Assembly: GCA_018825985.1 (NCBI GenBank)
Contig: JAHKAP010000047.1
Coordinates: 2,719-66,718, forward strand
Source of the DNA: Candidatus Omnitrophota bacterium
GTDB taxonomy: Bacteria > Omnitrophota > Gorgyraeia > Gygaellales > Profunditerraquicolaceae
Length of the DNA: 64,000 nt
Direction: 5' to 3'
The notes below the pieces were generated by a model. The model had not been told where the DNA came from. It was given only the letters and a program-made list of their open reading frames with translations, and did no database searches. Every line of letters begins with the position of its first letter. Position 1 is the first letter of the stretch. The position numbers were made by a program, and so were the translations under genes. Shown here in pieces: positions 4,908 to 64,000 of the stretch.

Positions 4908-4922
4908 TATGGAAAGAAAAAA

Positions 4923-4944
4923 ACGGGGTCAGAATTATTTTTAG
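4923..4944. repeat. Half-REP (GGGGTCAGAATTATTTTT) at the 5' flank of RAYT. It is followed by a CCTCCC...GGGAGG hairpin that contains the RBS.
   Basis: Same core as the eight or more paired REP copies elsewhere in the window. Confidence 0.7.
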
Positions 4945-4993
4945 TTAGATTTTACCTCCCGACACGTCTATTAATATTAGAAGGGAGGATCTT

Positions 4994-5683
4994 ATGGCCA
5001 GAAGACCGCGTTTATTTGTATCCGATGTACCCTATCACGTTGTTCAGCGAGGCAATAATAAAATTCCTATTTTTTTAGCCGATCAAGATTACCGCATCTT
5101 TTTGGATACGCTCCAAGAAGCCAAAACCAAACACCCTTGTTTTATTTACAGCTATTGCCTGATGCCTAACCATTTCCATTTACTTATTGAACCTAAAGAA
5201 GATAATAATGTCAGTTTATTAATAAAGTTATTGGGAGCCAAATATGTGCGGTATATCAATAAAAACTATGAACGTTCAGGCACTCTTTGGGAAGGTCGTT
5301 TTAAATGCTCATTGATTGATAAGGAATTATATTTTTTAACCTGTCTTCGTTATATTGAAATGAATCCAGTAAGGGCTGGCATAGTCAATTCTCCAGAACT
5401 ATATCGGTGGTCGAGTTATCGGGTTAGGGCAGTTGGTGAAAGAAGTTTTATTGTAGACATGGATCATTGGTATGATAATCTGGGTTCTAATGCAGAAGAA
5501 CGTCAAAATAAATATCGACAATTCTTCCAAAATTCAATATCTGATTCCGCTTTGCAACTTCTACGAGAAATGACTAATAAGAATGGTATCGTAGGCAGCG
5601 TAAACTTTAAAACGCGAGTAGAACAATTTGTCCACAGAGAGATTGTTATAAGGTCTGCTGGCAGGCCGAAGAACGAAAAATAA
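4994..5683 (+). mobile_element. REP-associated tyrosine transposase (RAYT; IS200/IS605 TnpA-like Y1 HuH transposase)
   Basis: HuH motif (PNHFHLLIE) and catalytic Tyr region (RYIEMNPVRAGIV). Inverted half-REPs flank both ends. Confidence 0.85.
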
Positions 5684-5696
5684 TTCTGACCCCATT
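5674..5696. repeat. Half-REP (AAAAATAATTCTGACCCC) at the 3' flank of RAYT. It overlaps the RAYT stop codon.
   Basis: It is the inverse complement of the left half-REP. The decamer ATTAATATTA occurs just inside both flanks. Confidence 0.7.
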
Positions 5697-5708
5697 AATA
5701 TTAATAAG

Positions 5709-5740
5709 AAAGCCCTGACAAAATTTTGTCAGGGCTTTCT
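5709..5740. terminator. Bidirectional rho-independent-type hairpin (AAAGCCCTGACAAAATTTTGTCAGGGCTTTCTTTG) between convergent RAYT and SBP genes
   Basis: Perfect 11-bp stem with T-rich tails on both strands. Confidence 0.7.
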
Positions 5741-7598: not shown

Positions 7599-9653
7599 AT
7601 GGTAATGGCGGTAGAAGCAGTTAAGATCAAGATGTCTGATAGCTTGCGTTGTAGGTTAATCTTATATTTTGTACTTATTACTTTTATCCCCTTGGTTATT
7701 TTGAGCGTCATTGCTTATAATATTACAAAATCAAGGCTGCAATCTCAGATTGCCGGTTCTCTGGAAGTTGTGGCTACGGAGACATTAGACAAAGTAGACC
7801 GCTTTATCTATCAGCAGACATCAGATGTCAAGTCCTGGAGTAAAAATCCGATTTTAAAAGGAGCTCTTTTTTTTGGAACCGCGGATGTAGCGGATACATT
7901 TTTCAGAACTATCCTTGATTCATACAGGGAATTCCAGGCGTTGGCGCTATTTGAACGTAACGGAGATCAGATTATATCTAAAGGTGAATGTGTGTTATAT
8001 GAAAAAGGCCAGAATCAATCCCGGGCTAACTGGTTTAAGGCAGCTATAGCCGCAAAAGGCAGTTTTTATATTACTGAGGTAAAGAAATCCAAAGATAAAG
8101 TGCGTTTAGGGATTTCTGTCGCAGTTGTGGATTCCGAGACCGGAGAGGTCAGCGGAGTGTTGTTTGCAGAATTAAATTTTCTTACTATCAGGGAGATCAT
8201 TGCTCCGGTTCAGGTAACCGCAAATATTAAAGACCAGTCTATCAGTATCATTAATAAAGATGGGTTGATTATATTTGATCTTAATCAAGATGTCATATTT
8301 GAAAAGAATTTGATCAAGGATAATTTCCTGAGCGCCAAGCGGGTGCTCTCAGCCAAGGATAACGGGTACGTAGTTGATCTTAATAGCGGGCGGCTTACAG
8401 GGTATGCTTTCAGTAAGGGTTATAAGGAATTTAAGGGAGAGATGTGGAGCCTTTTATTAGGGGTACAGAATAAGGCTATTCTTGCCCCGGTATTACGCCT
8501 GCGCCAGGTTTTCATGTTAATTATTTTTATAACGTTGATCGTAGTTACTATTATTTCCATATTCATCAGTCACAAGATCACCAGTCCTATTATTATTGTT
8601 ACTAACGCTATTCTTGATATTGCTGAAAGAGAGGCCGATTTAACCCATAAAATTAATTATACTTCTAAAGATGAAATAGGGATGTTAGTGGTAGCGTTTA
8701 ATAAGATTATAGATTCAATTCATAATGTGATTAAGCAGGTTAAAAATACGGCAAACACGGTAGTTGATTCGTCACAGAATATGTCCGCGACCACCCAGGA
8801 GATGAATGCGTCTACTCAGGAAGTATCTGCTGCGATTTTACAAGTGAGTAAGGGCGCCAGTTCTCAGGCAGATCATTTGGCCAGAACTTTTGAAATTATA
8901 GAAAAGTTAGCGGCAAGCCTGCGCCAGGTAGTGGCCAATGCTCAATTAGCTAACCAGACCGCTGACAAGACGAGCCTTGGAACTGAAGAGGCATTTATTT
9001 TTGCTGGTGAGGCGGTGGAGAAAATCGAGATATTAAATAATTCGGTTAATGTGGCTAAAGATGTTATCCAGGAATTAGGCGAAACATCTCAACAAATAGG
9101 CGCAATTACCGAAACAATTACTTCTATCGCAGACCAGATTAATCTTTTGGCTCTGAATGCCGCTATTGAGGCTGCCAGGGCTGGCGAGGCTGGCCGGGGT
9201 TTTGCTGTTGTCGCCGAAGAGGTGCGTAAGTTAGCCGAGGGGTCTGCCGATGCAGTGCGTAAAATTAGCGGGTATATACGTTCGATCCAGAGCGGAACCG
9301 CGAAAGCAGTCAGCGCTATACTCACAAGCTCCAAGGCAGTTCAGGAGGGTAAAGCCAAGGTAGCGAAGATCTCCGAGAACCTGCGGGATATCAATACAGC
9401 TATTAAAGAAGCCGCTGTTTTAATAAACCAGATTGCTGTTGCTGGAACTGAACGCGTAGAAGAGACAGAGAAGATAGTTAGGGCGATTAATGAGGTAGCT
9501 GCCATTGCTAAGCAGTCTGCCGACACTGCCCAGCAGGTATCTTCGACCAGTGAAGAGCAGACTGCGTCGATGCAGGAAGTATCTGCTTCTTCTCAGGAGC
9601 TTTCTCGCTTGGCAATGGATTTAAGAGATGTAGTTAATAGGTTTAAGATTTAG
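7599..9653 (+). CDS. Methyl-accepting chemotaxis protein (TM1, periplasmic Cache-like domain, TM2, HAMP, MCP signalling domain)
   Basis: Highly conserved MCP signalling region ([32 protein letters not shown]). Two TM helices. Confidence 0.9.
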
Positions 9654-9671: not shown

Positions 9672-9745
9672 AATAGGAAAATAGGGACAGCGACTATTTT
9701 TTTAAATATAGTATGTGAAAAAAATAGTCGCTGTCCCTATTTTCT
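9672..9745. repeat. REP-like hairpin, type B (AAATAGGGACAGCGACTATTTTT ... AAAAATAGTCGCTGTCCCTATTT)
   Basis: 23-bp inverted repeat. A second copy lies at 40152-40216. Confidence 0.7.
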
Positions 9746-9789
9746 TGATTGACACCCGCCTAAAACAGTGGTATATTAAGAAAATATTA

Positions 9790-9838
9790 TTGGGGTCAGA
9801 ATTATTTTTTTGTTAAAAAATAATTCTGACCCCATTTT
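9790..9838. repeat. Paired REP type A (GGGGTCAGAATTATTTTTTTGTTAAAAAATAATTCTGACCCC)
   Basis: Inverted pair with a 4-nt loop. Same core as the RAYT flanks. Confidence 0.8.
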
Positions 9839-9860
9839 AAAACGAAAGGGGATGATATTA

Positions 9861-10028
9861 GTGCCGGAAATCGAAATTAAGAAAGGCGAGTCTTTTGAAG
9901 GGGCGATGCGCCGTTTCAAGAGAAAGATCGAAGAAGAAGGGATTTTGAGGGAAGTTAGGGACCGTAAGCATTACGAAAAGCCCAGTGAGCGCAAAAGAAA
10001 GAAGATGAAGCAAAGCAAAAGAAGATAA
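9861..10028 (+). CDS. rpsU: 30S ribosomal protein bS21
   Basis: [27 protein letters not shown] aligns with the E. coli S21 N-terminus. A GTG start with an AAGGGGA SD is preferred over the ORF-track ATG at 9810, which lies inside the REP. Confidence 0.8.
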
Positions 10029-10942
10029 TGGGCTTGGCTCTTTCTAGTTCCTGGAATGCCTTTAGATATTCTAACGGCGTTCCATTGATCCAGGAGATAA
10101 AATCCTTAGGTTTTGATGAAGTAGAATTAAGCTTTAATCTTACCTCTTCAATGTTTAAGGATATCGAAGATCTAGTAAAAAAACGTTTTATACAAGTTAC
10201 CAGTCTGCACAATTATTGCCCTATACCGACGGGTTTAAAAAGGAAGAATGCTCTTCCTGATTATTATTCGCTTGCCTCAATAGACGGGCCGCAAAGAAAA
10301 AAAGCGGTTTTGGAGACCAAAAAAACAATTGATTCTGCTTCGCGGGTCAAGGCAAAGGCGGTAGTTTTGCATTGCGGGAGAGTGGAGATCCCCGACCCGA
10401 CCCGAGCTCTAATTGGCCTGTATAACCGCGGCTTAACGGGCACGGCTGAATTTTAGGATTTAAAAAAAGACGTCATCCGCAGGAGAAAGGCCAAGGCCGG
10501 GCCATTCCTGGAAAATACCCTGAAATCCCTGGGTGAGTTAAATAAATACGCTTTGAGTAAATCAATAAAGCTGGGTATTGAGACCCGTTTTTATTATCGC
10601 GAAATACCTTGTTTTGAAGAAATAGGCATAATTCTGGGTAAATTCCGGAATTCAAGCCTATTTTATTGGCACGATACCGGGCACGCCGAAGTTATGGATC
10701 GGTTAGGATTAGCCAGGCATATGGCATTTTTGGATTCATATTCCCCTGATTTATTGGGGATGCATCTTCATAATATCCAAGGTTGTATTGATCACCAGGC
10801 TCCTGTAGAAGGGGACTTTGATTTTAAATCTTTAAAGCCTTATCTTACGGGGGAAGCGATCAAAGTGATTGAGGCTCATCATCCGGCAACCCCTGAAGAT
10901 TTAATTGAGAGTAAAAAGCAACTAGAAGCATTATTTGGTTAA
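10028..10942 (+). pseudogene. Sugar phosphate isomerase/epimerase (xylose-isomerase-like TIM barrel) interrupted by an in-frame TAG at 10454-10456
   Basis: ORFs 10028-10456 and 10553-10942 are in the same frame. The translation is continuous across the TAG (…GTAEF*DLKKDV…GIETRFYY…WHDTGHAEV) and forms one single-domain protein. Confidence 0.55.
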
Positions 10943-12295: not shown

Positions 12296-12444
12296 TCGAT
12301 AAAGAGCTGTTGGATATTTTGGCCTGCCCGGACTGCAAAGGTGATGTGGAGTTAAAAGAAGAAAAGATTGTTTGTAAGAAATGCGGCAAGAAATATCCTA
12401 TTAAAGACGGCATCCCGGTAATGTTGATTGACGAGGCCGAATGA
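12292..12444 (+). CDS. Trm112/YcaR-like (UPF0434) small zinc-ribbon protein, 50 aa. It is not in the supplied ORF track.
   Basis: [54 protein letters not shown] overlaps upstream, and its stop overlaps the aroQ start. Confidence 0.7.
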
Positions 12445-12872
12445 TAAGAATATTAGTGATCCATGGCCCGAATTTAAATCTTCTCGGGGCAAGAGAACCC
12501 GAGGTCTACGGCCGGATAACCCTGAAAGCCATTAACCAGGCTTTAAAAAAAATGGCCGGTAAAAAGAAAGTTGGTTTGTCGATCATTCAGTCTAACCACG
12601 AAGGCGAAATAGTCGATAAAATCCACCAGGCCGGCAAAAAATTCCAGGGGATATTAATAAATCCCGCAGCTTATACCCATACGAGCGTAGCCATCAGGGA
12701 TTGCCTGGCCGGATGCGCTATTCCTACGGTTGAGGTCCATCTCTCCAATATTTATTTCCGGGAAGAATTTCGTCAAAAATCCTTGGTAACTCCTGTGGTG
12801 AAGGGTACGGTTATGGGTTTTGGCAAAAATAGCTATTTGCTGGGATTAGAGGCCCTCCTGGATATAATATAG
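12441..12872 (+). CDS. aroQ: 3-dehydroquinate dehydratase, type II
   Basis: [15 protein letters not shown] and [10 protein letters not shown] motifs. Confidence 0.9.
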
Positions 12873-12873
12873 A

Positions 12874-12943
12874 AAAATGGGGTCAGAATTATTTTTTCTC
12901 TGGTCTACTTTCTAAAAAAATAATTCTGACCCCATTTCTCAGA
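12874..12943. repeat. Paired REP type A
   Basis: AAAATGGGGTCAGAATTATTTTTT...AAAAAATAATTCTGACCCCATTT. It ends 6 nt before the pepP-like start. Confidence 0.8.
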
Positions 12944-14576: not shown

Positions 14577-14735
14577 TGAACCCAGCACCTTCTTTATAAA
14601 TCAGTAATTATAATACAACGCTTTAGTTTCGTTAATAAGAAAGAAGGTGCTGGATGAATCCCGCACCTTCCAAAAGATTAAATAACTTAAAGCGAACGGT
14701 TTTAATATCATTAATAAAAAGGAAGGTGCTGGATG
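14577..14735 (+). repeat. Two head-to-tail copies of an ~80-bp MITE-like element with 11-bp terminal inverted repeats (CCAGCACCTTC / GAAGGTGCTGG). Each copy ends in SD plus ATG; the second copy supplies the accB start.
   Basis: Copies at 14577-14656 and 14657-14735, plus a third copy at 24741-24820. The ends are conserved: GAAYCCMGCACCTTC … AATAARAARGAAGGTGCWRGRTG. Confidence 0.7.
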
Positions 14736-15194
14736 AATATCAAAGAAATTAAAGAGATGATCAATCTCATGAATGAAAACGAATTAGTGGAGCTGGAAGT
14801 TGAAAAAGAGGGTATGCGTATAAGGTTAAAGAAAACCACGGCTGAGACTCAAGGATATAACGGGCCGGTAGTCATAGATAGGCAAAAGATGCCTGAGGCA
14901 TCGCATCATAAAGAAACCGGCATTTCGGCAATTACCGAAAAACCCCAGATAAAAACAGTGGAAGTAAAGGCTCCGATGGTCGGGACTTTTTACCGCGCCC
15001 CTTCTCCGGAAGCGCCTCCTTATGCTGAAGTAGGCCAGGTTGTAGAGCCGGGCCAGGTGGTCTGTATTATCGAAGCTATGAAATTAATGAATGAGATTAA
15101 ATCTGAGATCCGGGGGAAGATCGTTGATATTCAGGTTGACAATGCCGAGCCGGTTGAGTTTGGCCAGCCGATGTTCATTATAGAACCTCTATAA
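14733..15194 (+). CDS. accB: Biotin carboxyl carrier protein of acetyl-CoA carboxylase
   Basis: Biotinyl-lysine motif EAMKLMNEI. Confidence 0.9.
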
Positions 15195-24742: not shown

Positions 24743-24820
24743 GCCCCGCACCTTCTAAAATATTAAATCATTAAAGGCAAATGGTGTTAGGGTTATGAAT
24801 AAGAAAGAAGGTGCAAGGTG
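24741..24820 (+). repeat. Third copy of the ~80-bp MITE-like SD-carrying element. It supplies the SD and GTG start of the yfcE-like gene.
   Basis: About 80% identical to copy 2 at 14657-14735. It begins at the stop codon of the upstream ATPase gene. Confidence 0.7.
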
Positions 24821-25309
24821 AGGATCGGGGTGATCGCAGATACGCATGTTCCGGACAGGGCTAAAAAAATACCGGATGAAGTTCTAAAGGCCTTTAGAAA
24901 TGTAGATATGATTATCCACGCCGGAGACCTGGTCGTTTTAAACGTGTTGGAAGATCTTAAAAAGCTCTGCCCTGACGTGAGGGCAGTCTGCGGCAACATG
25001 GATTGTATTCATGTGCGTAATAATTTTCCCGATAGAATGCTGATCAAAGCAGGCGAAGTTAATATCGGGGTAATGCATGGGTTTGGGCCGGTCGGGAGCT
25101 TAATGGATGTTTTAAAAGAGGCTTTTAAGAAAGAGAAAGTGGGCCTGATCATATTCGGGCATTCTCACAAGGCATTTAATAAAAATAAAGATAATATCAT
25201 TTTTTTTAATCCCGGAAGCCCGACTGATAAATTATTTTCATCCTACAATTCTTATGGTATTATAGAGATTAAAGGCAGGAATATTGATGCCAAGATAGTT
25301 AAATTATAA
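24818..25309 (+). CDS. YfcE/MJ0936-family metallophosphoesterase
   Basis: GVIADTH, HAGDL, GNMD and GHSH motifs. Confidence 0.8.
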   Translation: MRIGVIADTHVPDRAKKIPDEVLKAFRNVDMIIHAGDLVVLNVLEDLKKLCPDVRAVCGNMDCIHVRNNFPDRMLIKAGEVNIGVMHGFGPVGSLMDVLKEAFKKEKVGLIIFGHSHKAFNKNKDNIIFFNPGSPTDKLFSSYNSYGIIEIKGRNIDAKIVKL

Positions 25310-25310
25310 A

Positions 25311-25390
25311 TGTAAATGGGGTCAGAATTATTTTTCTTATTTTACTTACCCGAAAAATAATTCTGACCCCATTTAGACCCCATTTACAAG
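25311..25390. repeat. Paired REP type A, flanked by a 25-bp direct duplication (25283-25309 and 25391-25417)
   Basis: GATGCcAAGATAGTTAAATTAtAAA repeats as GATGCgAAGATAGTTAAATTAaAAA. The first copy contains the yfcE stop. Confidence 0.75.
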
Positions 25391-36465: not shown

Positions 36466-36547
36466 GAAATGGGGTCAGAATTATTTTTTCTTTAGTCTGG
36501 CGCTCGAAAAAATAATTCTGACCCCATTTCTGCTGACCCCATTTCTG
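36466..36547. repeat. Paired REP type A with an extra partial 3' repeat (GACCCCATTTCTG x2)
   Basis: GAAATGGGGTCAGAATTATTTTTTC…GAAAAAATAATTCTGACCCCATTTCTGCTGACCCCATTTCTG. Confidence 0.8.
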
Positions 36548-40151: not shown

Positions 40152-40216
40152 TAAATAGGGACAGCGACTATTTTTTAGCTCGCTCTCCCTATTTAAAAAA
40201 TAGTCGCTGTCCCTAT
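40152..40216. repeat. REP-like hairpin type B, second copy, with a diverged middle copy
   Basis: AAATAGGGACAGCGACTATTTTTT … AAAAAATAGTCGCTGTCCCTAT. Confidence 0.7.
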
Positions 40217-43794: not shown

Positions 43795-43931
43795 AGAAAT
43801 GGGGTCACAAGAAATGGGGTCACACAAGAAATGGGGTCAGAATTATTTTTTCGTATCAAGTAAAGTAGACAAAAATAATTCTGACCCCATTTCTCAAAAA
43901 TAATTCTGACCCCATTTCTTGACCACATTTC
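43795..43931. repeat. Compound REP type A cluster: three tandem GAAATGGGGTCA half-sites, one full pair, and an extra 3' half
   Basis: AGAAATGGGGTCA x3 … AAAAATAATTCTGACCCCATTTCT x2. Confidence 0.8.
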
Positions 43932-43956
43932 TAAAAAAGGCTGAAAGGGGGTGGGG

Positions 43957-47881: not shown

Positions 47882-47946
47882 GAAATGGGGTCAGAATTAT
47901 TTTTTCTTTATTTTATGTGCTCGAAAAAATAATTCTGACCCCATTA
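47882..47946. repeat. Paired REP type A
   Basis: GAAATGGGGTCAGAATTATTTTTTC…GAAAAAATAATTCTGACCCCATTA. Flanked by the similar 13-mers AATATGAATGAAA and AATTATGAATAAA. Confidence 0.8.
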
Positions 47947-51383: not shown

Positions 51384-51477
51384 AAATGGGGTCAGAAAAT
51401 GGGGTCAGAATTATTTTTTCTTTTTGTTTTATTGTAAAAAATAATTCTGACCCCATTTTCTGACTGACCCCATTTAC
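51383..51477. repeat. Compound REP type A (two left halves, one right half plus an extra partial)
   Basis: AAATGGGGTCAGAAAATGGGGTCAGAATTATTTTTTC…AAAAAATAATTCTGACCCCATTTTCTGACTGACCCCATTT. Confidence 0.8.
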
Positions 51478-51504
51478 AACAATGATAGGAGGGTTTTAAA
51501 AGAA

Positions 51505-63370: not shown

Positions 63371-63408
63371 AACCCCCTATGGGTCACCCTAGGGGTCATC
63401 ACCCTAGG
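63371..63408. repeat. REP type D (GGGTCACCCTAGGGGTCATCACCCTAGGGGTCAGG) flanking the second RAYT
   Basis: Nested palindromes around CCCTAGGG. Shares GGGGTCA with type A. Confidence 0.6.
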
Positions 63409-63430
63409 GGTCAGGTCCCTTTCACGCAAC

Positions 63431-64000
63431 CTAACTATAATCAATAGGTTGCAACAAGTCACTTTGCACTTCTTCGTTCTGATGGGTACAATCTATCTTT
63501 TTTTTAATATTCTCATTGATTATCGTCTTTAAATAAAATTGTTGTCTTATTATAATACTGCTTCCTAATTCAATATAGTAAGGATCTATATCTACTAGTT
63601 TATCTGCTACTCCCAATACATATACCCTATAACTTGAGAATGGGTATGCTTCAGGCTTACTAATCAATCTAGCCCTTACAGGATTAAGCTCGATATACTT
63701 TCCACACTGCAAATAGTAGGCCTCGTCGTCAATAACCTTACTCTTAAACCGCCCTTGCCATAGATGCCCTACGCATTGATGTCGCTTCTTAAAATAGTAA
63801 TAATAGGTAAGGCTGAGCCTTTGTATAAACTTAGCTAAATCGCTATTGTCATCTACTCCTACCATAAAGTGGAAATGATTGGGCATTAGAGCATAATGAT
63901 AAATCTTGACCTTTTCTGTCTGTTTAAATAGCAGCGCCATCTTCCAGAATAACTTATAGTCCTTGGGTCGGAAGAACAGTTTTCGTTTATTATTACCTCG
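63431..64000 (-). mobile_element. Second RAYT/IS200-like Y1 transposase, a different family from the first. Its N-terminus runs past the window end.
   Basis: HuH (MPNHFHFMV) and ELNPVRARLI. The frame stays open upstream of Met63940 (…RGNNKRKLFFRPKDYKLFWK). Confidence 0.8.

Follow-up and report, generated by a model that had tools for sequence, protein, structure and literature searches.

A transposase gene of probable TIRtron type and its dispersed hairpin repeats in an Omnitrophota genome

What kind of genetic system is formed by a tyrosine transposase gene and a short repeat that both brackets this gene and recurs as hairpins in the spacers between other genes? The question is raised by a 64,000-nucleotide stretch of DNA from an uncultured Candidatus Omnitrophota bacterium (GenBank assembly GCA_018825985.1, contig JAHKAP010000047.1, positions 2,719 to 66,718 of the forward strand; hereafter the window), which encodes a 229-amino-acid HUH/Y1 tyrosine transposase (4994..5683, + strand). 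A first-pass annotation had described the locus as an active system of repetitive extragenic palindromes (REPs) and a REP-associated tyrosine transposase (RAYT). We conclude that the locus is probably a TIRtron, that is, a single-copy RAYT-family gene of the type associated with terminal inverted repeats (TIRs; the protein being a TIRYT, of Y1 subclass 2.1 or Bertels Group 1), accompanied by a non-autonomous family of dimers that resemble REPINs.

The arm repeat at the gene and in the spacers

The repeat unit, or arm, is the 18-mer GGGGTCAGAATTATTTTT, which has 17 exact matches in the window where 0.15 are expected, a number reached by none of 100 shuffled sequences; tolerating up to three mismatches added no further site within the window. 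Two of the copies bracket the transposase open reading frame: the left TIR (4925..4942, + strand) starts with the box GGGGTCAG, and the right TIR (5676..5693, - strand) overlaps the last lysine codon and the stop codon TAA (5681-5683). The gene thus lies between exact copies of the repeat and its inverse, as had been claimed. Fourteen further copies make up seven inverted pairs (18-mers at 9792/9833, 12879/12933, 25318/25370, 36471/36525, 43833/43888, 47887/47942 and 51401/51454), and the last copy is an extra full arm (43896-43913). The claim that the core is dispersed as inverted pairs, all of them intergenic, also stands, with seven such pairs in addition to the one that flanks the gene, which amounts to eight repeat loci per 64 kb or about one per 8 kb. 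Paired 18-mers are separated by 6 nt at 9792 and by 17-20 nt at the other pairs; once the A/T extension of the arms and their usual outer AAAT/ATTT flank are included, the dimers have perfect stems of 22-29 bp and loops of 4-17 nt, against the 4-20 nt first reported. Folded as DNA, the dimers reach -20 to -25 kcal/mol (z -9 to -12), and a lone arm is without secondary structure (0 kcal/mol). The box at the start of the arm fits the consensus GGGGWSAS; the arm is rich in A and T in its inner half, and a GT[AG]G foot was not found in it. The TIRs measure 18-25 bp, the cassette 769 bp and the dimers about 60 nt.

Dimer 1 (9789..9836; 22-bp stem, 4-nt loop) is located in the 5' leader of rpsU, and the other six begin 0-16 nt past the stop codon of the upstream gene, inside strings of co-directional genes. 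Dimer 2 (12872..12940; 26-bp stem, 17-nt loop) comes directly after the stop of the gene at 12441-12872, and dimer 6 occupies 47884..47945 (23-bp stem, 16-nt loop); dimers 3 (25311..25386), 4 (36466..36547) and 7 (51384..51478) and the compound site at 43795..43932 carry additional units that are described below. Nearly all genes of the window are on the + strand, and the GC skew is positive throughout, which makes the + strand the leading strand. The dimer loops are homologous, since 0 of 1000 shuffles reached the observed similarity score, and the dimers therefore descend from one founder unit; at the same time the loops are only roughly half identical, as judged by eye on the alignment, beside identical arms, so the dimers are not recent copies. 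Of the six dimers with long loops, five point the same way and the one at 43833 is inverted, numbers too small to interpret. Target-site duplications were not found flanking the dimers, as is expected for Y1 enzymes. The idea that the loops are remnants of the cassette interior, as in a miniature inverted-repeat transposable element (MITE) made by internal deletion, was rejected, with only 6-9 of about 19 positions matching and the orientations mixed.

The transposase, its relatives and its class

The 229-residue protein matches the Pfam family Y1_Tnp (PF01797, "Transposase IS200 like"; E = 3.5e-16), narrowly passes the NCBIfam model for REP-associated tyrosine transposases (NF047646; 85 bits, cut-off 80) and fails the IS200 equivalog model (19 bits, cut-off 55). 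His60 and His62 (NHFH), Trp99, Tyr120, Asn124 and Pro125 (YIEMNP) and a C-terminal Gly-Arg-Pro are invariant in 31 aligned homologues, and the tyrosine motif is YxxxNP, not YxxxQ. A single-sequence search of the Protein Data Bank (PDB) with the transposase gave no match; a profile built from the 31 homologues placed Escherichia coli TnpA-REP (4ER8) on top (E = 2.9e-5), with the HuH and YxxxNP motifs aligned, which confirms the HuH and tyrosine motifs that the first-pass annotation had read in the protein. The AlphaFold model (pLDDT 91.7) has its best fold match in 4er8_A (TM 0.76 on the target), with the TnpA proteins of ISDra2 and IS608 next in rank. Together, these results support the placement of the gene in the RAYT branch of the Y1 HUH transposases. 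In the full-length model, the roughly 80 residues that follow the catalytic core are helical and confidently predicted; modeled in isolation this C-terminal domain is poor (pLDDT 72), and its profile returned nothing meaningful from the PDB sequences. The C-terminal Gly-Arg-Pro is followed by basic residues and resembles an AT-hook core; a link between this tail and the AT-rich inner half of the arm is offered as no more than a suggestion. Ratios of dN/dS of 0.06-0.10 against four orthologues, at saturated synonymous sites (dS up to 2.3), indicate that the gene is under strong purifying selection. There is one gene of this type in the 64-kb window, plus a 39% identical paralogue, and no second copy of the whole cassette; neither a tnpB neighbor nor subterminal hairpins were found.

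A scan of species-representative genomes returned at least 590 relatives, of which 80 loci were kept. In about 60 of these 80, inverted repeats with a core of the type GGGG(T/A)CAGA bracket the gene (for example, GGGGTCAGAGAACAAT, GGGGACAGACCACG and GGGTCAGACTCGAT), across several phyla, in Nitrospira, in gamma-, beta- and deltaproteobacteria and in others. Sixteen Omnitrophota cassettes, found in 15 distinct genomic contexts and with pairwise protein identities of 56-91%, have the same arms as the window: the left arm lies, nearly unchanged, about 50 nt before the ATG, the overlap of stop codon and right arm is kept in most cassettes (exceptions include loci L012 and L090), and the arms are about 98.5% identical across cassettes (4 substitutions in 270 positions, counted by hand on alignment A2). 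Because the same arms bracket the gene in these 16 cassettes and 15 contexts, the sequences support the view that the dispersed palindromes are the cognate repeat of the gene. The first-pass annotation had asked that the relationships of the transposase match the flanking repeat type, and they do: in 45 of 45 loci the arm type is that of the nearest protein neighbor, and mean protein identity is 55-67% within an arm type and 47% between types.

Paralogues within one genome have different arms. The second Y1 gene of the window (63431..64000, - strand, its N-terminus cut by the window end) encodes a 39% identical protein with the motifs NHFH and YIELNP that scores 69 bits with NF047646, below the cut-off of 80. 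It is flanked on its 3' side (63384..63422, - strand) by the arm GGGGTCAGGTCCCTTT (63407-63422 on the + strand) and by two tandem 15-nt units, TGACCCCTAGGGTGA, each made of arm end and flank, and no other copy of the GGGGTCAGGTCCCTTT-type arm occurs in the window. The Omnitrophota metagenome-assembled genome L172 encodes two Y1 genes (8321-8998 and 10001-10693), 1 kb apart with a ribbon-helix-helix (RHH)/Fic pair between them, each with an arm type of its own, GGGGACGGTTC in the paralogue and GGGGTCAGAATT. Beside another Omnitrophota RAYT homologue, L171 (1048-9184) holds a bAvd-like gene, a reverse transcriptase gene (RVT_1) and a gene for a 2086-residue protein, a layout that resembles a diversity-generating retroelement.

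Classical REPs are monomers that fold on themselves as imperfect palindromes with a 5' GT[AG]G foot (PMC6006769), and canonical REPs go with RAYT Groups 2 and 3, or Y1 subclasses 2.2, 2.4, 2.5, 2.7 and 2.8 (PMC6006769). Di Nocera et al. (2013) named TIR-flanked units TIRtrons and their proteins TIRYTs, and described a shared GGGGWSAS motif, a repeat that overlaps the 3' end of the gene in some units (the "3'ov" class) and moderately abundant TIR families present as dimers or clusters (PMC3733652). Most TIRYTs fall into TnpA-Y1 subclass 2.1, the counterpart of Bertels Group 1 (Quentin et al., 2018; PMC6006769). That subclass is the second largest of Y1 proteins, present in about 15% of the strains surveyed, with a median length of 238 residues, the motifs NHVH or NH[YF]H, W[EQ], and YIELNP or Y[IV]HLNP (PMC6006769, Table 1) and a C-terminal similarity to the helix-turn-helix (HTH)-like domains Bac_DnaA_C, HTH_23 and HTH_28 (PMC6006769). 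As far as the 2018 survey reports on it, subclass 2.1 goes without REP-like repeats (PMC6006769), and Bertels et al. (2017) report few flanking 16-mers for RAYT Group 1 (PMC5581495). By length and motifs, the 229-residue protein of the window fits subclass 2.1 (NHFH, WE, and YIEMNP with methionine for leucine), and we favor a TIRtron over a classical REP system because the arm does not fold, starts with the GGGGTCAG box and takes in the stop codon at the right end, and because of the protein's length and motifs (NHFH/WE/YIEMNP). Shared with the published TIRtrons are terminal repeats of the GGGGWSAS type, a right repeat over the 3' end of the gene, a protein of about 230 residues, low copy number and, in some genomes, repeats that form dimer or cluster families. 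The present case differs in its Omnitrophota host (we found no literature linking RAYTs to Omnitrophota), in a density of about one dimer per 9 kb and in perfectly identical arms; three features described below, namely the hairpin of the leader, the duplications at arm ends and the turnover of families at orthologous spacers, do not appear in the portions of the TIRtron and TIRYT papers drawn on here.

The identification as REP/RAYT made by the first-pass annotation therefore holds for the RAYT branch and for the existence of a cognate repeat, and fails for the classical REP. A canonical system as in E. coli or Pseudomonas (Groups 2/3), in which self-folding REPs are paired in ordinary REPINs or bacterial interspersed mosaic elements (BIMEs), would account for the passing RAYT score, for E. 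coli TnpA-REP as the best structural match and for repeats that are extragenic and abundant (about one per 8 kb). We nevertheless consider it largely refuted and very unlikely: the lone arm is unstructured, the GT[AG]G foot is missing and the box is the GGGGWSAS of TIR-type elements; the length of 229 residues, NHFH and YIEMNP are signatures of subclass 2.1, unlike subclass 2.2 (DHLH and YIHYNP) and subclass 2.5 (DH[LF]H and YI[VI]ANP) (PMC6006769); and the compound sites consist of partial units duplicated directly, instead of full REPs in alternation. What the locus does share with REPIN-RAYT systems (Bertels and Rainey, 2011; PMC3116915, PMC3337134) is a design of two inverted units around a less conserved spacer, which yields a long hairpin doublet outside genes, here built from TIR units with loops of common descent, and a Y1 gene that is present once, is passed on vertically and has that repeat on both sides; it differs in that the monomer is neither palindromic nor provided with GT[AG]G, the protein is of the Group 1/subclass 2.1 type and not of Group 2/3, and the elements are much shorter (about 60 nt). 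In a REPIN, moreover, the doublet is the unit that replicates, whereas the comparisons of strains and species described below gave a single presence/absence difference. Likewise, E. coli TnpA-REP (4ER8, PMC3479197) is the best profile and fold match, with HuH and YxxxNP aligned, yet it is only 19% identical, has 165 residues and reads a GTAG foot; the protein of the window has an additional helical C-terminal region of about 80 residues, a Gly-Arg-Pro tail and a DNA partner with the GGGGTCAG box. Even less probable, to the point of being nearly out of the question, is an autonomous insertion sequence (IS) of the IS200/IS605 type or an unrelated MITE family of the DDE type. The Y1_Tnp match and the combination of terminal inverted repeats with short derivatives do give the classic picture of an IS with its MITEs, but the IS200 model scores 19 bits against 55, the tyrosine motif is YxxxNP and not YxxxQ, and subterminal hairpins, tnpB and target-site duplications beside the dimers are all missing; apart from this gene the window has just one Y1 gene, the 39% paralogue with different arms, no other transposase gene bears the arms in question, and the cassette is syntenic across species with a dN/dS of about 0.1.

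For the TIRtron, a mechanism can be proposed by analogy with E. coli TnpA-REP (PMC3479197) and IS608. The transposase would recognize the box or the hairpin on single-stranded DNA, Tyr120 together with a metal bound by His60/His62 would cleave it, and rejoining of the strands would copy or move dimers as units.

The leader of the transposase gene

The left arm is separated from the ATG by a leader (4943..4993, + strand) with invariant columns in alignment A2. It contains the sequence GTTAGA (4944-4949), which is similar to a -35 element, the pyrimidine tract CCTCCC (4955-4960), CGTCTATTAAT with the -10-like TATTAA (4969-4974), and the Shine-Dalgarno sequence GGGAGG (4983-4988); GTTAGA and CGTCTATT are invariant across the Omnitrophota clade. 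When each sequence was folded separately, the Shine-Dalgarno sequence paired with the upstream pyrimidine tract in 15 of 16 loci, through stems of differing sequence and with z-scores down to -7, the covariation being judged by inspection of these folds. RNAalifold on a MAFFT alignment of the leaders gave a weak consensus (-0.7 kcal/mol), because insertions and deletions throw the stems out of register.

GTTAGAT and TATTAA, with 18 nt between them, lie in the same place as a near-consensus TTGAC(A/T)-17-TA(T/C)AAT in a few more distant relatives, and TTGAC is found at the matching offset from the box in only some of them; these likenesses suggest a weak promoter directly beside the left arm. 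When the cassette was scanned for promoters, none was called in the leader. If GTTAGA and TATTAA do form a promoter, transcription starts downstream of the pyrimidine tract, which would then act on read-through transcripts only. Expression of the cassette thus appears to be insulated, in that pairing of the tract with the Shine-Dalgarno sequence would block translation of transcripts that enter from outside. The leaders of IS200, IS10 and IS50 form a stem-loop that hides the ribosome-binding site, and in IS10 and IS50 this is specific to transcripts that come from outside the element. The likeness to the translation control of these elements consists in the occlusion by the leader, whereas the protein class and the element ends differ; in comparison with IS10 and IS50, the role of the leader here is deduced from the pairing conserved in the 15 of 16 loci only. 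The same leader also precedes a 36% identical paralogue in L172 (8200-8320), and its sharing between paralogues suggests strong constraint or leader exchange.

Turnover and possible host use of the hairpins

Comparison with a syntenic sister species of about 80% DNA identity places the cassette at the same locus in both genomes, between the genes for a MiaB-like protein and an ABC substrate-binding protein. In the sister species (L005, 8700-9700), about 150 bp of the 3' end of the MiaB-like gene are present on both sides of the cassette in copies that are 75% identical, the left arm is immediately preceded by a family-2 arm, and the upstream MiaB-like copy reads through into the repeats. The sister species also has the dimer of the rpsU leader (9789-9836) in the corresponding position; its arms are conserved, its loop is not the same. 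Seven of the eight occupied spacers hold a palindrome in both species, mostly of another family in the sister species. Beside the arm described so far (family 1), the window contains a second hairpin family with the arm AGGGACAGCGACTATTTT (9675..9746, with a second copy at 40155..40216; stems 23-29 bp), for which no cognate gene is present in the window and whose arm resembles the AAATAGGGGACAGACCACG arms of proteobacterial relatives. The spacers between dnaE and HU and between ProS and PPDK hold family 1 in the window and a nested GGGGACGGTTC-type element in the sister species; that between LysM and PhoH has family 2 (40155) in the window and a family-1 dimer in the sister species, and that downstream of the chemoreceptor (MCP) gene has family 2 (9675) and family 3 (GGGGACGTTTCTATTTT), respectively. 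Between RecO and ApbA, the family-1 compound of the window corresponds to an element of about 170 nt with GGGGTCAGGTCCC ends, and between MgtE and Nramp family 1 corresponds to a simple hairpin; in the case of the 36466 dimer, the palindrome family in its spacer differs in the sister species. The arm type of the second Y1 gene of the window (GGGGTCAGGTCCCTTT) fills the RecO-ApbA spacer of the sister species (L176, about 9808-9990). These replacements demonstrate turnover on the time-scale of species.

Among same-species assemblies from other samples (99.93-100% identical; 7 + 4 contigs compared), the cassette was present throughout, the 43795 compound site was identical in four assemblies and the 47884 dimer was identical in L177 and L178. 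The presence/absence polymorphism of repeat pairs sought by the first-pass annotation was thus not seen among same-species contigs, and its description of the system as active is not supported, given the diverged loops, the site shared with a species of about 80% identity and the lack of presence/absence differences among strains at the four sites spanned. In its behavior the cassette is a resident gene that is inherited vertically. Several public contigs assembled from short reads of this species break near or inside the arms (at the ends of L002-L004, the starts of L181-L183 and the end of L181), namely about 40 nt beyond the right arm of the cassette, within the arm at 43896 and within the dimer at 47887, as is expected of a multi-copy repeat.

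Four of the seven dimers carry tandem copies, 11-17 nt long, of 4-8 nt of flank plus the outer 6-9 nt of the arm (25365-25386, 36518-36547, 43795-43826, 43919-43932, 51384-51409 and 51459-51478). The right end of dimer 3 has an 11-nt tandem duplication (GACCCCATTTA twice, 25365-25386) and that of dimer 4 one of 15 nt (CTGACCCCATTTCTG twice, 36518-36547). The compound site begins with the partial left units AGAAATGGGGTCACA and AGAAATGGGGTCACACA, continues with a dimer (43827-43894), whose loop is inverted relative to the other dimers, and the full right arm at 43896-43913, and ends with a degenerate partial unit (43919-43932); dimer 7 is accompanied by a 13-nt left partial unit, AAATGGGGTCAGA, and a degenerate right remnant (51459-51478). 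Similar arm-end duplications accompany cassettes in L008, L011 and L172 as well as the second Y1 gene of the window, and duplications of a whole arm, as at 43896, occur also in L170 and L175. The partial units at 43795 and 51384 are symmetric around a complete dimer, as if nested. The arm-end duplications share an inner limit 6-9 nt from the outer end of the arm, which may mark the nick made by the transposase. BIMEs are clusters of full REPs in alternating orientation with defined linker motifs. The extra half-sites that had been taken for BIME-like arrays are for the most part short direct duplications of arm ends (11-17 nt) and not mosaics of alternating full repeats; only at 43896-43913 is there a full extra arm. 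Between the window and L177, two same-species assemblies, 13 single-nucleotide polymorphisms occur in 17.5 kb, and two of these fall within the 19-nt remnant beside the 51401 dimer (window 51459-51478, L177 14095-14114).

Do the hairpins serve the host? They could be mainly host elements, such as stabilizers of mRNA 3' ends, terminators, attenuators or protein-binding sites, kept at particular spacers by selection, with the Y1 protein a domesticated maintainer or a mere neighbor, an explanation that overlaps with the TIRtron and that we regard as possible, though short of likely. It is in keeping with the placement of six of the seven dimers 0-16 nt past a stop codon in co-directional gene strings, with the rpsU-leader dimer in two species, with the co-occupancy of 7 of the 8 orthologous spacers (rough hypergeometric p of 4e-5 to 0.012, depending on how spacers are counted) with arms that stay invariant while loops drift, and with the lack of strain-level polymorphism. 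A need for just any hairpin, however, leaves unexplained why the arms are identical to the terminal repeat of the Y1 gene, why arm type matches clade in 45 of 45 loci and why the loops have a common origin. Downstream of the stems comes AUUU(C/U) and not a clean U-run, so that they are poor intrinsic terminators, and in a search of the whole window Rfam recognized two tRNAs only, the dimers matching no family. Host use of the hairpins may nonetheless take the form of protection of mRNA 3' ends or modulation of translation termination, and it would account for hairpins that persist at fixed spacers and for the invariance of the arms.

Several results weigh against the TIRtron reading. Invariant arms beside strongly diverged loops fit selection for a host function as well as they fit recognition by a transposase. 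The margin by which the RAYT model NF047646 was passed is narrow, and the scores of close relatives (65-75 bits) are under the cut-off of 80. The HTH-like C-terminal domain reported for subclass 2.1 was not detected with Pfam, even at E = 10, and the literature searched, in which two papers only use the term TIRYT, yielded no experiments on any of these proteins. The single clear presence/absence difference from the sister species is the dimer at 12879, which is absent there, and at the four sites spanned by same-species contigs (40155 of family 2, 43795, 47884 and 51384) no such polymorphism was found. Finally, most related cassettes have only their two gene-flanking arms and no dispersed copies in their 20-kb loci, so that the gene persists without needing a repeat family. 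The window, by comparison, contains 15 arms beyond the two that flank its gene, and the same dimer design is found in a few other lineages (for example, L042 and L066), beta- and deltaproteobacterial relatives included. Dispersal of the repeat is lineage-specific.

Starting again from the TIRtron, we can sketch a more far-reaching model that we put forward as speculation and consider rather unlikely as a whole. Palindromes with a GGGG box would not land at random; they would insert into, or replace, hairpins already present in spacers, so that a fixed set of sites stays occupied while the resident family shifts with whichever TIRYT paralogue is active; the tandem duplications and nested arms would be scars of a nick just inside the GGGGWSAS box, and the identity of the arms would result from copy correction driven by the enzyme and not from selection at the individual sites.

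Two further sites in the window are of note for gene expression. A near-consensus promoter, TTGACA-17-TATATT (9749-9777), lies upstream of dimer 1, which ends 25 nt before the rpsU start codon (GTG at 9861) in both the window (region 9749-9881) and the sister species (L005 14530-14660), and this dimer may influence expression of S21. Upstream of the gene at 14733, which encodes a biotin-carboxyl-carrier-like protein, a hairpin formed by ACCCAGCACCTTCTTT and AAAGAAGGTGCTGGAT (window 14580-14740, conserved at L005 18560-18670) pairs with the ribosome-binding and start region and may be a translational control element; the segment AAGAAGGTGCTGGATGAAT recurs at 14701 and, more loosely, at 24786 (24786-24823).

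The Omnitrophota locus is clearly a further example of a known, barely studied repeat system. The TIR-associated class of RAYTs is almost unstudied, and the locus offers a compact case with an explicit link between enzyme and repeat, in which the position of the cut, reading of the AT-rich arm half by the Gly-Arg-Pro tail and the C-terminal helices, and a block of read-through translation by the leader hairpin can all be tested. In practical terms, the arms break short-read assemblies of Omnitrophota genomes, and the repeats could serve as markers of strains or lineages. Three leads stand out as the most interesting, namely family replacement at orthologous spacers, the putative scars at the arm ends and the extreme conservation of the arms. 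Should the replacement hold genome-wide, it bears on whether repeats of this kind are maintained as parasites or for the use that the host makes of the hairpins.

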